From the NCBI GenBank assembly GCA_038046265.1, contig JBBSWN010000010.1:75091-139090 (forward strand): DNA of 64,000 nucleotides, in the 5' to 3' direction. Below are positions 1,184-28,131 of this stretch, piece by piece. Source of the stretch: Nanobdellota archaeon. Lineage in GTDB: Archaea; Nanobdellota; Nanobdellia; SCGC-AAA011-G17; JACPIM01. The position numbers and the translations under genes are program-made. Each line of letters opens with the position of its first letter. The first letter of the stretch is position 1. The notes under the pieces were generated by a model. The model was given only the letters and a program-made list of their open reading frames with translations. It had not been told where the DNA came from and searched no databases.

Positions 1184-1600
1184 TTATTTTTGCTGGTCTT
1201 TTTCAACTAGTTCATTTAATTCTTGTGTCAACTGTTCTGAGTACGTTGCTGCTTTAGTGAGCTCTTCTTTTACTGCTTCCTGGGATTTATTTACATTTTC
1301 TACCTGCACTTTTACCAGCTTAATTGCTTCTTCTACTGTTTTTGTCACTAGAATGCCTGCACCAACGTTTACCATTACATTTCCAGGATCTGCTAGTTTA
1401 CTATTAACAAAAATCCCTGAACCTATAGAAGAAAATATTTCTGAATCTTTCTTAATGTCATTCATTTCAATTAAAGAAGTTTCAAGACTTGTTAATTCTG
1501 CCAACTGCTGCTGGAGCAACATGAATTGTTCCTGGACTTTTTTTATCTGCTGATTTAGAATTTGAAGTTCAATATATTTTTGCTGAATTTCCTGCTTCAT
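1184..1600 (-). CDS. pfdA: Prefoldin alpha subunit
   Basis: 138 aa with coiled-coil ends and a central beta-hairpin region (VNVGAGILVTKTVEEAIKLV). Archaea typically have pfdA near rpl14e. Confidence 0.7.
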   Translation of the reverse strand: MKQEIQQKYIELQILNQQIKKVQEQFMLLQQQLAELTSLETSLIEMNDIKKDSEIFSSIGSGIFVNSKLADPGNVMVNVGAGILVTKTVEEAIKLVKVQVENVNKSQEAVKEELTKAATYSEQLTQELNELVEKDQQK

Positions 1601-1605
1601 TTAAA

Positions 1606-1638
1606 CCCTTTTAGAAAAAGTGTTTACGGAAAACGACT
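1606..1638 (-). repeat. Recurrent upstream motif, copy upstream of pfdA
   Basis: Plus-strand text CCCTTTTAGAAAAAGTGTTTACGGAAAACGAC. Confidence 0.5.
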
Positions 1639-2308
1639 ATTTCTTGGCTCCTTTTTTAGTTTTTTCTGCTTTTGCTTTTTTTGGCTTTGTTTTTTTAGGC
1701 TCTTTTTTTACCTCTTTCTTTGGAACTTCTTTTATTTGAACTTTTTCTTCCTTTTTTAATTCTTTTTTCTCAGGAAGAGCTTTTAGCTTTTTCTTTTTTT
1801 CCTTAACTTCATAACCAAGAGCTTTTAACTCACGCTTTATTGTTTCTGTTGATTCATTTTTTTTAATATCTAATTTTTTATCCAAAGTTTTTAAGTGAAG
1901 AACATTGCATTTTCTTCTTTTTAACTGGCCGTCTATCAAGACAAAATTTTCATCTAATTTATCTATAATAACACATACTGAACCTGCTTCTCTTCCTGCT
2001 GTTTTTACACATAGTTGACCAAGTTCTAAAGGCAGTTCTTTTAGGTTTTTGAATTTTTCAATTATTTTTTCTCTAGAACATTTTGAGCACAAGTTTCCTC
2101 CAAAAGGCCTGGAAACTGTTTTTTGCGAGTATGGAAGATTTCTGAAGACAAACGGTCTTTCTCTTGGTATTCCTTTTAAATCATGACCACAAGAACCGCA
2201 TTTTGCTATTGACGGCTTTCTTTTTATGTAATGAACTGCTAAATTATTTCCAGGTGTTCTTACCTGGATTCTTCTTAAGCTTCTTGTTGCCTGAGGTTGA
2301 AATGCCAT
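1637..2308 (-). CDS. rpl34e-rpl14e: In-frame fusion of ribosomal proteins L34e (N-terminal) and L14e (C-terminal) with a lysine-rich tail
   Basis: The N-terminus MAFQPQATRSLRRIQVRTPG...CGSCGH...CSKCSRE is the L34e zinc ribbon. Residues from about 95 (LGQLCVKTAGREAGSVCVIIDKLDENFVLIDGQLKRRKCNVLHLKTL) are the L14e KOW fold. No stop and no in-frame ATG/GTG/TTG separates the two parts (the junction codons are CTA AAA GAA CTG CCT TTA GAA CTT GGT CAA). A roughly 55-aa K/E-rich tail follows. Confidence 0.7.
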   Translation of the reverse strand: MAFQPQATRSLRRIQVRTPGNNLAVHYIKRKPSIAKCGSCGHDLKGIPRERPFVFRNLPYSQKTVSRPFGGNLCSKCSREKIIEKFKNLKELPLELGQLCVKTAGREAGSVCVIIDKLDENFVLIDGQLKRRKCNVLHLKTLDKKLDIKKNESTETIKRELKALGYEVKEKKKKLKALPEKKELKKEEKVQIKEVPKKEVKKEPKKTKPKKAKAEKTKKGAKK

Positions 2309-2309
2309 T

Positions 2310-2768
2310 TTAGTGTATTTTTAATAATTTTCTTAAGGCTATGTTAAAGATTATTGAAAACAAGATATATGAACCGAGCCATCCCAAGCTTATGCCGAAT
2401 GGCAATGTCAGCAATTTTACTCCTGGAGGAAAAGCTTGCCTTAACCAACCAAAGATAAACAACAAAGGAAGCAAAGTTACCAATGTTGCTGGAAGCGAGT
2501 GCTGTAAGTATTTTAAACTTGTTTCCATTGATCTTTTTTGTATTTCTATTAGTTTCTGGGGGTCATTTTTAAACTTTTGCATTTCTTTTTTAAAATATTC
2601 TGTGTCTTCTTTCAAGGATTTCATTGCATGCTGGTTTGTAAAAAATTTCATAGCCAGGTTTACTATTAAAGTTAAGATAAATGAGATTATAATAATGTTC
2701 CAAGGATTTCCTAAGGAAATTATTGGTCCGAACAAGAAATTAAAGAAACTTTCTAATGCCATTTTCAC
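2310..2768 (-). CDS. DUF106 / Oxa1-superfamily membrane insertase-like protein
   Basis: 152 aa with 3 TM segments and a central charged coiled region. It sits in the conserved position next to secY. Confidence 0.55.
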   Translation of the reverse strand: MKMALESFFNFLFGPIISLGNPWNIIIISFILTLIVNLAMKFFTNQHAMKSLKEDTEYFKKEMQKFKNDPQKLIEIQKRSMETSLKYLQHSLPATLVTLLPLLFIFGWLRQAFPPGVKLLTLPFGISLGWLGSYILFSIIFNIALRKLLKIH

Positions 2769-4165
2769 TCCATCATTTTTCTGAAAGCGGGATTCATGTC
2801 TGCCATGTGCTGCTTACTGATATCTTCATATAATCTGTATATAATCATTACTGTCAGCAAGATTCCTGTTCCACTTGACAATGCTCCGAGCAAGTCTGCT
2901 GTTGCTGCCAACAACCCAACTGCTACTGCTCCCATTACAGTTAAAGGAGAAATGTATCTTTCTAATAATCTTTCAACAACTCTAGGGTCTCTTCTAAAAC
3001 CAGGAACTTGAAGACCAGAATTAATTATTTGTTTTGCCTGGGAGGATGCATCCATTCCAGATGTCTGGACCCAGAAAACTGAAAATATTATAGAACCAAT
3101 TACAAAAGAAAGTATGTAAACCAAGGATTTAAGTATTAAAATTGGATGGAAACTGCCACCTAAAATTTCTGCTGGCAGATTAGGAGCAAAAAGCCAGGCA
3201 ACTAGGCCAGAAACTGGAACATTGCCTGCAAATGTACCTAACAATGGAATGCCTTTGCTTTCTAATAATCTTGCCCATAATTGAATATTTGCAAACAAAG
3301 CAGCTATTAATATAACTGGAATATTTGATGTGTAAATGAATTTTAAAGGCCATCTTATGCCATGACCTCTGATTCTTCCAAAGCTTAATGGAATTTCCAC
3401 TTTCATAGATTGAGCATATGTTGCTATAAGGAAAATTAAAATTGTGAATACAATTAACAAGGCTGCTAGAAAAGCTTCTCTAGGATTTCTTCCTATTAAG
3501 GATAACAAGAAAACCCATAACTGGCCGACTGGACTTTCACCTGTGCCAAATGCAAATGTTCCTGCTCTTGTTAAAGGAGAGAAAATTCTTATAAAAATCT
3601 GGGAAGAAACACCAGCTGCTATAAACAATGAAATACCAGAACCAAAACCCCATTTATTTAAGACTTCATCCATGAACAAGACCACCATGCCACCAACAAA
3701 CAACTGGAATATTAATATTAATTGAAGATAAAAGAATGTTGATTGAAGCAAATTTTGAGCAGGAGCAAGACCACCTAAAAGCACGTAAACTATAGCTTCA
3801 AAAATAATGAAGAATACTGCTGCTATTTTTTGGACACCCTGGAATTTTGTCCTGCCTTCTTTTGTTGTTGTGTCAAATTTCAATATTTCAGAACCTACCA
3901 ACAACTGGAGAACTATGGATGCTGTAACTATCGGGCCAATACCCAAAGATAAAATGCTGCCAAAGCTTGCCCCCAACAATATTGACAAGGATTCAAATTG
4001 AGATAATGCGTTTTGACCAAGACCATACAATGGAACAACACTAAGAATATAGAAGGCTGCTAAAATAGTTAAAGTCCACTTTAACTTAATATTGAAAGAA
4101 AGGTGTTTTTCATCTGGACCTTTTACTTCTGGAAGCTTCCTTATCCAATTGTCGAGAATACTCAT
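2765..4165 (-). CDS. secY: Preprotein translocase subunit SecY
   Basis: 466 aa with 10 TM segments. It ends the ribosomal operon after L15. Confidence 0.9.
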   Translation of the reverse strand: MSILDNWIRKLPEVKGPDEKHLSFNIKLKWTLTILAAFYILSVVPLYGLGQNALSQFESLSILLGASFGSILSLGIGPIVTASIVLQLLVGSEILKFDTTTKEGRTKFQGVQKIAAVFFIIFEAIVYVLLGGLAPAQNLLQSTFFYLQLILIFQLFVGGMVVLFMDEVLNKWGFGSGISLFIAAGVSSQIFIRIFSPLTRAGTFAFGTGESPVGQLWVFLLSLIGRNPREAFLAALLIVFTILIFLIATYAQSMKVEIPLSFGRIRGHGIRWPLKFIYTSNIPVILIAALFANIQLWARLLESKGIPLLGTFAGNVPVSGLVAWLFAPNLPAEILGGSFHPILILKSLVYILSFVIGSIIFSVFWVQTSGMDASSQAKQIINSGLQVPGFRRDPRVVERLLERYISPLTVMGAVAVGLLAATADLLGALSSGTGILLTVMIIYRLYEDISKQHMADMNPAFRKMME

Positions 4166-5148: not shown

Positions 5149-5961
5149 TTATGATATGACCTCTGGAATTTCTTCTCTTACTTTATGCTGGGTTTTTGTT
5201 GAACTTAATTTTTTCAAAGCATCGAAACAAGATGAAATAAGATTTAGTTTTGTTCTTGACTGGCCGAAGGTTCTTGAATAAACATCTTTAATGCCTGCAA
5301 AATTTAAAAGCTTGGCACATTCTTTTTCAACACAAAGGCCTGTTCCTTTAGGAGCTGGCAAAAGCTCAATTTCAACTGAACTTGTTTTTGCACTTACTGC
5401 AAAAGGTATAGAATGAGAACCTTGGCAACTGCATTCCCAGGAGCCACAACCATTTTTAATTTTCATCAAATTTAACTTTGCTTTTCTGACTGCTTTTTCC
5501 CTTGCCGGGACTGTTTCTTTTGCCTTGCCATAACCAAAACCAACATAACCTTCCTTGTTTCCGACAATTGCTAAAGCTGCGAACTTTGGCTTGTTTCCTT
5601 CTGCTGTTTTTTTCTGGGTCTGCCTCCAGATTGATCTTTTTCCACCGCCAAATTTTCCCTTGCTCTGACCAACCAGGATAAAATCTGTTTCTAAATTAGG
5701 GATTAAAGTATCAACAATTTGAGCTTCAAGGATTCTTAATCCTTTTCCAAGAATTTCATCTATATTAGTTATCTTCCCTTCTTTTACAAGCTTTCCCAAA
5801 GTTGTTTTTGGAGACCAGCCTGAGACTTCTTCTTTTATAACTACACCTGCTGGTAGTTCAGCTTCAGGCAGCGCTTCAATTGACAAAGCAACTTCTGTGC
5901 TTTCAAGCTTGCTTTCTTCTTGTTCTGGAAGTCTTTTCTTCTCCATTGGAACCCTTTTCAT
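5149..5961 (-). CDS. rps5: 30S ribosomal protein S5 (uS5) with an acidic N-terminal extension of about 48 aa
   Basis: It has the dsRBD and S5 C-terminal domain (GKFGGGKRSIWRQ...VGNKEGYVGFGYGKAKE). The canonical start WSPKTTLGKLV is at residue 49. Confidence 0.85.
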   Translation of the reverse strand: MKRVPMEKKRLPEQEESKLESTEVALSIEALPEAELPAGVVIKEEVSGWSPKTTLGKLVKEGKITNIDEILGKGLRILEAQIVDTLIPNLETDFILVGQSKGKFGGGKRSIWRQTQKKTAEGNKPKFAALAIVGNKEGYVGFGYGKAKETVPAREKAVRKAKLNLMKIKNGCGSWECSCQGSHSIPFAVSAKTSSVEIELLPAPKGTGLCVEKECAKLLNFAGIKDVYSRTFGQSRTKLNLISSCFDALKKLSSTKTQHKVREEIPEVIS

Positions 5962-6033: not shown

Positions 6034-6546
6034 TTACTTTAATATTTTTGCCTTAATTTCATTTATATGCTTTCCTAAATCAGGAATCTTGTACTGTTTG
6101 TTTGATTTTTCATAATGATTTATTATGTGTTTTCCTTCTAATCTATCTTGGGAAGGAAGTATTTCTTTTTTATGGGGAATGTTTAAACCAGCATCAATTG
6201 AACCTTTTAATACTGCATACAATCTTGAGCCTTTTACGCTTCTATAAAGGCCTATGTCCAAAATAACTTTTTTTATTCCTTTTGCCAGAGCTTTTTTTCC
6301 AACCAAGATACCAAGAAGATATGCTGCTGGAATATTTTTTTTAGATGACTTAAGGCTGTATTTTTTCTCCAGTTCTTTTGTAGATGCTGACAAAAGTATT
6401 TTGTCACCATTTTCATGAAATTCAATTATTTGAGCTAAAGTGTTTTTTAAGGATTTTCTTACTACTAGCCTTGGTAATCTAGATTTAACTAAGGTTAGCC
6501 TTTTTCTATAATCTGTTCTTCCGTGAATTTTTCTGTTGAACTGCAT
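6034..6546 (-). CDS. rpl18: 50S ribosomal protein L18 (uL18)
   Basis: Begins MQFNRKIHGRTDYRKRL. Conserved position. Confidence 0.8.
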   Translation of the reverse strand: MQFNRKIHGRTDYRKRLTLVKSRLPRLVVRKSLKNTLAQIIEFHENGDKILLSASTKELEKKYSLKSSKKNIPAAYLLGILVGKKALAKGIKKVILDIGLYRSVKGSRLYAVLKGSIDAGLNIPHKKEILPSQDRLEGKHIINHYEKSNKQYKIPDLGKHINEIKAKILK

Positions 6547-6547
6547 T

Positions 6548-7003
6548 TTACTTTCTCTTCAGGAACAAGTTGTTTTCATCCAAGTGTAATTTCAAGTGTC
6601 TTTTACTCCTGAACTGGTTTCCTTTTATCATTTTGTAGACTTTTGAGTATGTTTCTGGAGCAACAAGATTTTTAAGTTTTAACAATTTAATGAATTTTCT
6701 TTGAACACGTACTTTTGTTATCCAAGCTCTTTTTCTAGGAGTTCTTGCTGTCTTTGTACCTTTTCTTGAACCTTGGCCTTTTCTTTTTCCTTTCCTTTTT
6801 TGCAATCTTAATTTATTTGCCCTGAAAGATGAGATTCCTTTTTTTTGCTTTGCTTTTATTGCATCATCATTAATTAATTTTCTAATGTCTGCTTTTGTAA
6901 TAGCTTCTTTAATATCATTCAATCTAGTGTTGTCAAACCAAACTCTGTTTTGACCTGCCTTCAAGATGTCTGCTGCTATTCTTTTCTGGACGTTTAGTTT
7001 CAT
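6548..7003 (-). CDS. rpl19e: 50S ribosomal protein L19e
   Basis: Begins MKLNVQKRIAADILKAGQNRVWFD, the L19e signature. Confidence 0.85.
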   Translation of the reverse strand: MKLNVQKRIAADILKAGQNRVWFDNTRLNDIKEAITKADIRKLINDDAIKAKQKKGISSFRANKLRLQKRKGKRKGQGSRKGTKTARTPRKRAWITKVRVQRKFIKLLKLKNLVAPETYSKVYKMIKGNQFRSKRHLKLHLDENNLFLKRK

Positions 7004-7563
7004 AATCCTGCCTCAAGTACTTTTCTTTTTTCTTCTTTTTCTCTTAATTTTTTTTCTTCATCTGTTTCTTTCTTTTCTTCTTTTACTTCCGGCTTTTTCT
7101 CCGGCTTCTTTTCTTTTATCTTTAGTTTTTCCTTTTTTTCCTTGATTCTTTTTTCAAATTCACTTATCAAGGACTTAATTTTTTCATCTATATTTTTTAT
7201 ATTCTGGATTTTGAAACTTTTTTCTTTTATTTTTTTCAATAATTCAATTCTTTTTTTTGCACCAACTGTTCTTCCTATTATTAAGATATTGTCTTTAGTT
7301 ACTTTTGCTAAATCATTTAAAGAATGAATTAAAATTGGAATTAAACCTTCTTTGCTTAAACCACGAACAAGCCTAGGGCTTTTATAACCAACACTGGGCT
7401 GTTTTCTTTTGCCCAGCTTCTTTTTCCTCATCTTAGAATGAATTCCCTTTGGCTTTCTCCAGGTTTTTTCAAGGTTTTTTCTTGCCGGGTATTCCTGCCT
7501 AATAAATTCTGGCTTGTTGTCTTTTATTTTTTCTCTTAATTCAAGCAATTCTGGGATTTTCAT
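7000..7563 (-). CDS. rpl32e: 50S ribosomal protein L32e with a K/E-rich C-terminal extension
   Basis: Core EFIRQEYPARKNLEKTWRKPKGIHSKMR, followed by a KEKK-repeat tail of about 70 aa. Confidence 0.8.
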   Translation of the reverse strand: MKIPELLELREKIKDNKPEFIRQEYPARKNLEKTWRKPKGIHSKMRKKKLGKRKQPSVGYKSPRLVRGLSKEGLIPILIHSLNDLAKVTKDNILIIGRTVGAKKRIELLKKIKEKSFKIQNIKNIDEKIKSLISEFEKRIKEKKEKLKIKEKKPEKKPEVKEEKKETDEEKKLREKEEKRKVLEAGL

Positions 7564-13563: not shown

Positions 13564-14286
13564 TTACTTTCTGCCTGTCCTTCTTGCTGCTACTTTACCA
13601 ACTTTTCTTCCAGGAGGAGCGTCTCTTGAGACTACTTTAATCTTTGCATGTTTTCTTCCTCTTCCTGAACCATAAGGATGGTTTAAAGCATTCATTGCAA
13701 CTGCTGAAGTTTGAGGATAAACTTTTCCTCTTGCTCTCATATAATGCCATCTTTTTCCTGCTTTTACAAAAGGCTTGTCTTTACGTCCATGACCAGATAA
13801 AGTTCCTATTGTTGCCCTGCAGTCTGGGAGGAATTTTCTTTGTTTTTTTGATGGTAATTCTACTAAGATTGAGTTTCTTGTTATGGATATTATTTTTGCA
13901 CAATTTCCAGCTGCTCTGCAGAATTTTCCGCCGTCTCCTGGAAAGCTTTCTATATTATATACTAATGTTCCTTCTGGAATTTGTTTTAAAGGAAGAGTAT
14001 TTCCATTGTTTAAAGAAGATAACAAACCCGATTCTATTTTATCATTAACTCTTAAATTTGAAGGAGCAAGCATAAACGCTTCTTCATTGTTTTCGAATTT
14101 TATTTTTGCCAATGGTGTTGTGTGGCCTGGGCATTTTACTAAGTCAACTACCTTTCCTGTTATTTTTCCTGATTTTTCAAACTGGTCAAATTTTCTATAT
14201 TTTACTTCTGCTAAAAAATGATTGGAGCGAGCTCTATATACGGGTGTTCCTCTTCCACGTCTCCTGATAATTATACGTTTTCCCAT
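13564..14286 (-). CDS. rpl2: 50S ribosomal protein L2 (uL2)
   Basis: Begins MGKRIIIRRRGRGTP and contains HPYGSGRGRKHAKIKVVSRDAPPGRKVG. Confidence 0.9.
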   Translation of the reverse strand: MGKRIIIRRRGRGTPVYRARSNHFLAEVKYRKFDQFEKSGKITGKVVDLVKCPGHTTPLAKIKFENNEEAFMLAPSNLRVNDKIESGLLSSLNNGNTLPLKQIPEGTLVYNIESFPGDGGKFCRAAGNCAKIISITRNSILVELPSKKQRKFLPDCRATIGTLSGHGRKDKPFVKAGKRWHYMRARGKVYPQTSAVAMNALNHPYGSGRGRKHAKIKVVSRDAPPGRKVGKVAARRTGRK

Positions 14287-14603
14287 TATACTTTTACCTC
14301 TGAACCAGTTTCACTTAATATTCTTGTTAATCTACGTTTTGCCTGCATATCTCTTTCTAATTTTTGTTGAGTTATTCTTTCAATTCCAAGTAGACAGGTT
14401 GGCTTGTTTGTTATTTTACCATCTTCTTCCATTATCCAGTTGTCTAATACTAAAAAGAAGACTTCTGGTTGACTTGAGTGAAAAACATGAGCTCCTGTTG
14501 ATTCTGAGAAACCTAAATACGTTGCCGGATTTTCTGGATAACCTTTTATCTTAAAGGCTTCTCCTTTCTTCAAATCTGGTTTTTTGTAATATTCTTCTAC
14601 CAT
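14286..14603 (-). CDS. Hypothetical 105-aa protein inserted between rpl23 and rpl2
   Basis: It is translationally coupled on both sides. There is a 2-nt gap after the rpl23 stop, and its own stop overlaps the rpl2 start. It has no recognisable family and is less lysine-rich than its neighbours. Confidence 0.45.
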   Translation of the reverse strand: MVEEYYKKPDLKKGEAFKIKGYPENPATYLGFSESTGAHVFHSSQPEVFFLVLDNWIMEEDGKITNKPTCLLGIERITQQKLERDMQAKRRLTRILSETGSEVKV

Positions 14604-27500: not shown

Positions 27501-27734
27501 ATGGGAACTATAACCATAAATGTAAAAGATGATATTGAGAAAACTTTTAGAAAAAGAGTTTATCAGTTGTATGGCAAGAAAAAAGGAACTTTAGGAAAAG
27601 CACTAGCAGAAGCTATGAAGGAATGGAGCATGAAGAAAGAGTATTTTGATAGATGTATGGCTTTACTAGAAAGAGGAGCTGACATGGGTAAAATTAAGTA
27701 TAAAGAAAGAGATGAGCTGCATGATCGCGATTGA
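27501..27734 (+). CDS. Putative antitoxin (VapB-like)
   Basis: 77-aa basic protein that overlaps the start of the downstream PIN gene. Confidence 0.4.
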   Translation: MGTITINVKDDIEKTFRKRVYQLYGKKKGTLGKALAEAMKEWSMKKEYFDRCMALLERGADMGKIKYKERDELHDRD

Positions 27735-28131
27735 TACAAATATCCTTGTATACGCTTTTGATACTGCTTATAATGAAAAAAGAGAAATATGTAAAAAGAT
27801 TATTAATGAAATCTTTGAAGGCAAAAAAACCGGGGTTGTTACAAATCAAATTTTAGGCGAATTTGCTAATGTAGTAACAAGAAAAATTGAAAAACCACTA
27901 ACAAAGGAAGATACTATTTCAATTATAGGAGCAATATTAGTAAGTAAAAACTGGAAAGTACTAACCTATTCTGGAGAGACTGTGCTAAATGCTTTAAAAT
28001 TAAATAAAAACTTTTGGGATTCTGTTGTTATACAAACACTTAAGGAACATAATGTTAGAGAAATAATTACTGAAAATGTTAGGGATTTTGAAGGTTCTGG
28101 TTTGATTATAATTAATCCATTTGAAAATTAG
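27712..28131 (+). CDS. vapC: PIN-domain toxin (VapC-like)
   Basis: MIAIDTNILVYAFDT N-terminal PIN signature with acidic residues. Confidence 0.7.
   Translation: MSCMIAIDTNILVYAFDTAYNEKREICKKIINEIFEGKKTGVVTNQILGEFANVVTRKIEKPLTKEDTISIIGAILVSKNWKVLTYSGETVLNALKLNKNFWDSVVIQTLKEHNVREIITENVRDFEGSGLIIINPFEN

Follow-up and report, generated by a model that had tools for sequence, protein, structure and literature searches.

The subject of this report is a gene in which two ribosomal proteins of the archaeal large subunit, eL34 (L34e) and eL14 (L14e), are joined in a single open reading frame (ORF). It lies in a stretch of 64,000 nucleotides (hereafter, the window) from a groundwater Nanobdellota archaeon (DPANN, Woesearchaeota; assembly GCA_038046265.1, contig JBBSWN010000010.1, positions 75,091 to 139,090). 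The window has a G+C content of ~31%, and an archaeal ribosomal-protein superoperon on the minus strand fills its first 16.7 kb. Toward the end of this superoperon, the order on the minus strand is L15, secY, a DUF106 gene, the fusion gene and prefoldin alpha (Table 1), and secY, the DUF106 gene and the fusion gene overlap or are at most 1 nt apart. The original prediction for this DNA had one frame encoding L34e, L14e and a lysine-rich tail, which is borne out by the 223-codon ORF and by the Pfam and NCBIfam matches to both families.

Table 1. Positions of the fusion gene, its parts and its neighbours in the window
Feature	Position	Strand	Evidence or remark
L15	4162-4572	-	Neighbour 5' of secY
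secY, 466 aa	2765..4165	-	PF00344 (E 4.7e-65); NCBIfam NF006341 (357.9 bits); DUF106 gene directly after
DUF106/EMC3-TMCO1-like (archaeal YidC-like) membrane protein, 150-152 aa	2310..2768	-	PF01956, 29.1 bits vs 27.1; directly upstream of the fusion gene
rpl34e-rpl14e fusion gene	1637..2308	-	223 codons plus stop (1637-1639), ATG start; Pfam and NCBIfam matches to both families
eL34 module, aa 1-87	2048..2308	-	PF01199; zinc-ribbon C37, C40, C74, C77; PDB and Foldseek eL34 matches
Linker NLKELP, 6 residues, aa 88-93	2030..2047	-	Read from the sequence
eL14 SH3/KOW barrel, aa 94-173	1790..2029	-	NF003320, PDB and Foldseek matches
Lys-rich C-terminal tail, predicted disordered, aa 174-223	1640..1789	-	Composition and AlphaFold2
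Prefoldin alpha	1184..1600	-	TIGR00293, 78.7 bits; downstream neighbour of the fusion gene

Residues 7-86 of the fusion protein match Pfam Ribosomal_L34e (PF01199) with an E-value of 7e-27 and 94 bits against a cut-off of 27, and residues 94-173 match the NCBIfam L14e equivalog NF003320 with 100.2 bits (cut-off 87). For the window protein, the Pfam KOW match does not reach an E-value of 0.01, but many stand-alone L14e relatives have KOW on record, and it is also found in the fused relatives P0126 and P0134. The four-cysteine zinc ribbon (CxxC...CxxC) is present in the window protein, and its cysteines have been lost in some fused relatives (P0026-P0028). In sequence searches of the PDB, eL34 chains match residues 5-87, and the L14e entries 2JOY and 2KDS match the eL14 part with an E-value of 2e-19. 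The AlphaFold2 model, with a mean predicted local distance difference test score (pLDDT) of 69, shows an N-terminal half that is extended and eL34-like, then an SH3-like barrel with strands at residues 98-145, and finally a stretch (residues 182-223) that falls below 50 and is predicted to be disordered. Foldseek matches the N-terminal half of the model to eL34 chains and the barrel to archaeal eL14 chains (8HKU, 6SKF, 9QF4) with template modelling (TM) scores of 0.72-0.78 and root-mean-square deviations of 2.2-2.4 Å. The model came without an inter-domain error estimate, and the relative orientation of the two modules is left uninterpreted. By sequence and by fold, both modules are clear orthologues of the stand-alone archaeal eL34 and eL14.

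The junction between the modules reads NLKELPLELGQL (AAC CTA AAA GAA CTG CCT TTA GAA CTT GGT CAA CTA); the junction-spanning peptide of the fusion is NLKELPLELGQLCVK, and the junction peptide of the intact fusion product is ELPLELGQLCVK. A stop codon or an alternative start had been said to be missing here, and direct reading of the sequence agrees: the linker codons and their flanks contain no stop, no in-frame ATG, GTG or TTG, and no GGAGG-like Shine-Dalgarno sequence or purine run. Therefore, the L14e part could not be started independently by an ordinary signal.

The identical 223-aa protein is encoded on eight contigs; the four for which the origin is shown come from an ENA assembly of a sample labelled Hain_H51_01um and from ERR3858113-5 (three separate runs, assembled in Logan). 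Among 5.8 billion proteins searched, 29 fused homologues with 37-100% identity were found. Of 271 proteins fetched in all, 46 are fused; they derive from many samples and metagenome-assembled genomes (MAGs), and the frame is kept through many amino-acid substitutions in the linker. That a lost stop or a frameshift in sequencing or assembly falsely joined two genes is practically excluded by the identical ORF on eight contigs, including assemblies of separate sequencing runs, and by the frame-preserving substitutions among the 46 proteins. In favour of such an artefact, MAG contigs can carry indels, and P0032 (161 aa, 'L14e') is annotated as if the L14e part of a fused ORF were a gene of its own; but P0032 is an annotation truncation, not a real start, since its first codon is one for Ile and the ORF around it is uninterrupted. 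The frameshift or stop at the junction that was originally to be looked for thus finds no support. The public names of the fused proteins are inconsistent, P0131 being named 'L34e' only and P0126 'hypothetical'. P0032, publicly '50S ribosomal protein L14e', is a piece of the L34e-L14e ORF that runs uninterrupted in the related locus L004 (5947-6732, plus strand).

In an alignment of 23 fused homologues, the frame is kept down to 35% identity, and the core contains invariant or nearly invariant residues in both halves. The short-linker fusions have linkers of 5-8 residues with a conserved K-x-x-P-[LI]-E-[IV]-G motif, except for two of 11-12 residues. In the fused proteins, the residue at the former initiator Met position is in most cases Leu or Ile, and Pro often stands before it (P-[LI]-E-[IV]-G). 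Because the fused frame and the linker motif persist over roughly 35-100% identity, the fused product is under selection. Fusion is the rarer state of these genes: in a profile search of 1.84 billion representatives at 50% identity, 1,759 match at E <= 1e-3, nearly all of which are single L14e or L34e proteins, and both halves of the profile are spanned by 13-14 of the best-scoring 150.

The canonical tail of the archaeal superoperon has the order secY-adk-DUF106-rpl34e-cmk-rpl14e. The window resembles it in the orthology of the modules and in their order and orientation after secY and DUF106, and differs in that a single ORF replaces the two, both adk and cmk are missing and the eL14 part bears a Lys-rich tail of ~50 residues. 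Between secY, the DUF106 gene and the fusion gene, the gaps are too small to hold either kinase gene. Nowhere in the 64-kb window does phmmer --max with filters off find an Adk- or Cmk-like ORF, all three seeds giving E-values above 0.2. The seeds were AdkA of M. voltae (identical to PDB 1KHT), the Methanothermococcus Cmk from locus L074 and, for the window search only, an unverified E. coli Adk sequence. A Walker-A regular expression was dropped as a means of kinase detection since it would miss a bacterial-type Adk, and the three-seed search was used instead. The two kinases are thus absent from the site, as predicted.

Related loci were collected by a pattern scan of one genome per species, and the top 80 were analysed in six frames with separate L34e and L14e profiles, giving 81 sequences with the window. 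The loci are almost all labelled Woesearchaeota, Nanoarchaeota or Nanoarchaeia; in the database, some are labelled 'uncultured Methanosarcinales', and one comes from Methanothermococcus. The genome of the window itself was missed by the scan because its sequence there is DGQLKRRKCN, which lacks the V or T that the pattern demands at position 4. The fusion is present in 10 of the 81 sequences (the window, L001-L006, L016, L022 and L044). Both genes are carried by 79 loci, and L34e and L14e are directly adjacent in 76 of these, with spacers of 7 to ~170 nt. The usual order is L15-secY-DUF106-L34e-L14e, followed in the closer relatives of the window by prefoldin alpha, which is common to the fused clade and its closest unfused relatives. 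No Adk-like ORF is found in any of the 80 loci, DUF106 directly following secY in 52 of 52 where both are seen. Cmk is detected in three loci only: L064 and L065, where the order is DUF106-cmk-L14e, and Methanothermococcus L074, which, unlike the window, has the canonical L34e-cmk-L14e order. L064 and L065 are Nanoarchaeota loci that keep cmk with no L34e seen, the opposite pattern to that of the Woesearchaeota loci. In L069, an ORF-free gap of 476 nt (6250-6724) lies between L34e and L14e, which is possibly a decayed cmk. The DUF106 protein is ~100 aa longer in many relatives (L007-L014 and many others) and matches the window protein in two pieces, which indicates that the longer relatives may carry an inserted domain. 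L14e is in frame with L34e in 62 of the 79 loci, and this excess was rejected as evidence because single-frame tblastn matches are placed first in the ranking; nearly all the out-of-frame loci are at L059 and L061-L080, and the top-80 sample is accordingly biased for frame counts.

A kinase-free order, secY-HP-L34e-L14e, has been printed for the DPANN archaeon GW2011_AR10, and L34e-L14e-Cbf5 for some Asgard genomes (PMC10833476); the abbreviation list of a gene-neighbourhood figure of Makarova et al. includes AdkA and L34E (PMC5898192). The adjacency in AR10 and in AR15 (L008) is like that in the window, but the genes are separate there, with an in-frame stop and a spacer of ~14 codons in AR15, whereas the stop is gone in the window. 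Since 76 of 79 loci have the two genes adjacent without cmk, no adk follows secY, and the AR10 order has been published, the loss of the kinases from this site is older than the fusion: it is clade-wide, already on record and ancestral to a very large group. The original prediction, by which cmk was apparently excised and its two neighbours fused, runs together two events that these counts (76 of 79 adjacent without cmk, adk in 0 of 52, only 10 of 81 fused) place far apart in time. The absence of adk and cmk is real at the site and is not specific to the genome of the window, being the general state of the group and hence not news. The assignment to a reduced-genome (DPANN) archaeon holds, and so does the value of the fusion as a lineage marker, here of a Woesearchaeota sub-clade: in the comparison with related genomes that had been called for, the fusion is shared by a sub-lineage and the kinase-free adjacency by the whole group.

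The unfused relatives suggest how the fusion arose. The junction reads '...RSV(stop)MTELLGR' in L031 and L042 and 'ARKG(stop)KMIEIGRL' in L018, each in frame with a single stop, and '...RSI(stop)GEHMLDIGR' in L063. An rpl34e stop directly against the rpl14e start is likely to be the precursor state. A single substitution in the stop codon of such a junction would join the two frames through a linker as long as those observed and would leave the initiator Met free to change. The fusion itself came after adjacency, and its simplest explanation is that the rpl34e stop codon was lost. In a neighbor-joining (NJ) tree of secY, L15, DUF106, L34e and L14e (1,028 columns), all the fused loci having secY fall in one clade (bootstrap 58), to which L031 and L042 are sister, and in an NJ tree of L34e and L14e (112 sequences), one clade holds all the main short-linker fusions (bootstrap 70). 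Outside the main clade are L044, with a 17-aa linker, the short-linker pair P0123 and P0029, and a loose set with linkers of 13-18 aa (P0124, P0126, P0128-P0131, P0134 and P0136). Most of the long-linker divergent fusions have no source name, and only P0126 is labelled Woesearchaeota. Since two co-oriented genes abut, further independent origins are to be expected, and the divergent fusions with linkers of 11-18 residues likely represent such origins. P0131 and P0134 are divergent, strongly acidic L34e-L14e fusions with linkers of 13-15 aa and share an extra conserved C-terminal motif of ~35 aa ('...KDDIKEYAKEEWGVELSTNDLKDEMIDQLFDEIE') that has no Pfam match; they may come from halophiles.

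The C-terminal tail of the fusion protein contains 23 Lys among its 50 residues. Among 202 L14e relatives that stand alone, 190 have a tail of at least 30 aa, the median length being 60 aa and the Lys content ~35%, and the L14e protein of Methanothermococcus is only 78 aa in all. Because almost all the stand-alone relatives carry a similar extension, the tail, to judge from them, predates the fusion and is inherited by it, not produced by fusing. In a review, the C-terminal extension of eL14 is called eukaryote-specific and lacking in archaeal homologues (PMC9932298), to which the L14e relatives recovered here would be an exception, at least in length. Other ribosomal proteins encoded in the window also have long charged ends. 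L32e (7000-7563, minus strand, 187 aa) has a Lys/Glu-rich C-terminal tail of ~65 aa that resembles the L14e tail, and in S5 (5149-5961, minus strand, 270 aa) the Pfam S5 N-terminal domain begins only at residue 113, behind an unusually long acidic and Lys-rich N-terminal extension of ~110 residues. Charged low-complexity extensions seem to occur on several ribosomal proteins of this genome.

A covalent link between eL34 and eL14 raises the question of where the eL14 part is placed in the ribosome. L14e binds twice to the archaeal 50S subunit (Armache et al., 2013; PMC3553981): behind the central protuberance, at H41 and the tip of H25 beside LX, which is the canonical site, and at H58/ES20L, where eukaryotes have eL27. 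In PDB entries of archaeal ribosomes found by sequence search, there are two eL14 chains and one eL34 chain per entry (eL14 chains: 8HKU-type, 18 in 9 entries; 6SKF-type, 6 in 3; 4V6U-type, 8 in 4), which independently reflects two-site binding of eL14. The partners of eL14 at the canonical site are uL6 and eL20, not eL34 (PMC9932298), and H58 is clamped by eL27, eL34, uL2, eL19, eL22, uL23 and eL43 (PMC7145529). In networks of the rabbit and yeast ribosomes, eL34, eL27, eL30, uL2 and eL43 form one proximity region, and eL27, eL30 and eL34 are grouped in wheat; the main text of Poirot and Timsit (PMC4881015) contains no term matching a direct eL34-eL27 contact. A linker of six residues spans ~20-25 Å at most, so that the canonical eL14 site is probably too far from the eL34 site.

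From these data, a course of events can be put together, its early steps shown and its later ones proposed. In nearly all the related loci, the superoperon ends in L15-secY-DUF106-L34e-L14e, with adk and cmk already gone and the L34e stop often against the L14e start. In one sub-lineage of Woesearchaeota, this stop is absent, and the gene encodes a single polypeptide of an eL34 zinc ribbon, a linker of 5-8 residues, an eL14 barrel and the pre-existing Lys-rich tail. Presumably, a point mutation abolished the stop codon of rpl34e, and the initiator Met of L14e was replaced afterwards. The eL34 part would take its normal place in domain III. As the short linker would reach the neighbouring site and not the canonical one, it is proposed that the fusion tethers the eL14 barrel to the second eL14 site at H58/ES20L, which eL27 fills in eukaryotes. 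The canonical eL14 site would then be empty, or it would be occupied either by another copy of the fusion protein, whose eL34 part stays unbound, or by the product of an undetected second L14e gene.

Taken as a whole, a genuine, vertically inherited eL34-eL14 gene fusion, with an origin by stop loss and docking at the second eL14 site, is a quite probable explanation of the data. Several points weigh against it. The match of residues 7-87 to the NCBIfam L34e equivalog NF003143 (89.5 bits) falls slightly short of the threshold of 97. A single origin has moderate support, with bootstrap values of 58-70. The unfused locus L075, in which a regular TAA-AA-ATG junction stands behind an AAGGAG Shine-Dalgarno sequence, is nested inside the fused clade as the sister of L006 and L016 with 100% bootstrap, and therefore either a later fission or more than one fusion would have to be assumed. 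The docking site of the eL14 part is drawn from the literature on other ribosomes. More speculative is the further idea that the fusion hard-wires the 'promiscuous' second copy of eL14 to H58/ES20L, with the canonical site vacant or holding a second fusion molecule, and that the recurrent fusions reflect structural affinity and not just crowding; this is put forward only tentatively.

Among the other explanations, the one that survives best, while still rather unlikely, is a neutral accident of extreme gene packing, one part of the fusion protein docking in the ribosome and the other being tolerated as a flexible appendage. The genes in the clade do overlap or abut, fusions apparently arose more than once, with linkers of 5-8 and of 11-18 aa, and L075 looks like a reversal. 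However, a part that is merely tolerated is hard to reconcile with the strong conservation of both domains in the fused proteins, where core residues are invariant or nearly so in either half, and with the conservation of the short linker in length and motif across the main clade.

It is improbable that the product is a polyprotein cut after translation into free L34e and L14e, in which case the ribosome would be ordinary and the fusion would only enforce co-expression. Cleavage would resolve the problem of stoichiometry and geometry posed by two eL14 sites and one eL34 site, and P-[LI]-E-[IV]-G is conserved in the linker, but L14e proteins that stand alone simply have E-[IV]-G-[RQ] as their conserved N-terminus, and no recognisable cleavage motif is present. 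Moreover, cleavage would still yield the two proteins at 1:1, not 1:2, and we know of no protease, cleavage motif or precedent for archaeal ribosomal proteins. Much less credible is an arrangement in which the linker bridges the two canonical sites, with eL34 in domain III and eL14 behind the central protuberance by uL6 and eL20. If the architecture of the ribosome is unchanged, nothing simpler could be assumed, but eL34 belongs to the H58 cluster with eL27, eL30, uL2 and eL43 near the exit-tunnel side, and the linkers of 5-8 residues have a reach of only ~20-25 Å.

Tethering at the second eL14 site can be compared with known systems. An eL14-type SH3 barrel at H58/ES20L, in the domain-III neighbourhood of eL34, is already known from the second archaeal eL14 copy and from eL27 (PMC3553981); in known archaea, the second copy is a free molecule from the same gene, and eukaryotic eL27 is a separate paralogue, whereas the placement of the barrel of the window protein is proposed by analogy. 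The fusion is 1:1 and has a six-residue linker, and two eL14 and one eL34 are present per ribosome, which would force a choice of eL14 site. It would thereby offer a natural test of the descent of eukaryotic eL27 from the second eL14 binding site. If tethering is true, a DPANN lineage has secured by a covalent link the very site that was secured in eukaryotes through the evolution of the paralogue eL27.

In eukaryotes, ubiquitin-eL40 and ubiquitin-eS31 are cases in which a ribosomal protein is made in a larger fused precursor that is cleaved. Those fusions join a ribosomal protein to ubiquitin, whereas the fusion in the window joins two ribosomal proteins, and nothing indicates its cleavage. 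Full-text literature searches brought up the AR10 gene order and the work on the two eL14 sites, but no description of a covalent L34e-L14e architecture. Both modules and the kinase-free gene order are known. As a clean, rare genomic change, the fusion marks a sub-clade of Woesearchaeota and helps in a group whose phylogeny is poorly resolved. Because public records treat it inconsistently, marker-gene pipelines that expect separate L14e and L34e could miscount completeness or misalign the sequences.

Elsewhere in the window, a 105-aa ORF without a Pfam match (14286-14603, minus strand) lies between putative L23 (14606-14863) and L2 (13564-14286), both identified from operon order, in an L3-L4-L23-L2 block that is normally invariant. 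Beyond the superoperon, a large region (16.8-63 kb) contains glycosyltransferases, radical-SAM enzymes and sugar epimerases, as judged by eye from ORF N-termini. Within it, a PIN-domain protein of 139 aa overlaps an upstream ORF of 77 aa without a Pfam match (27501-28131, plus strand), and the two are likely to be a toxin-antitoxin pair of the VapBC type.

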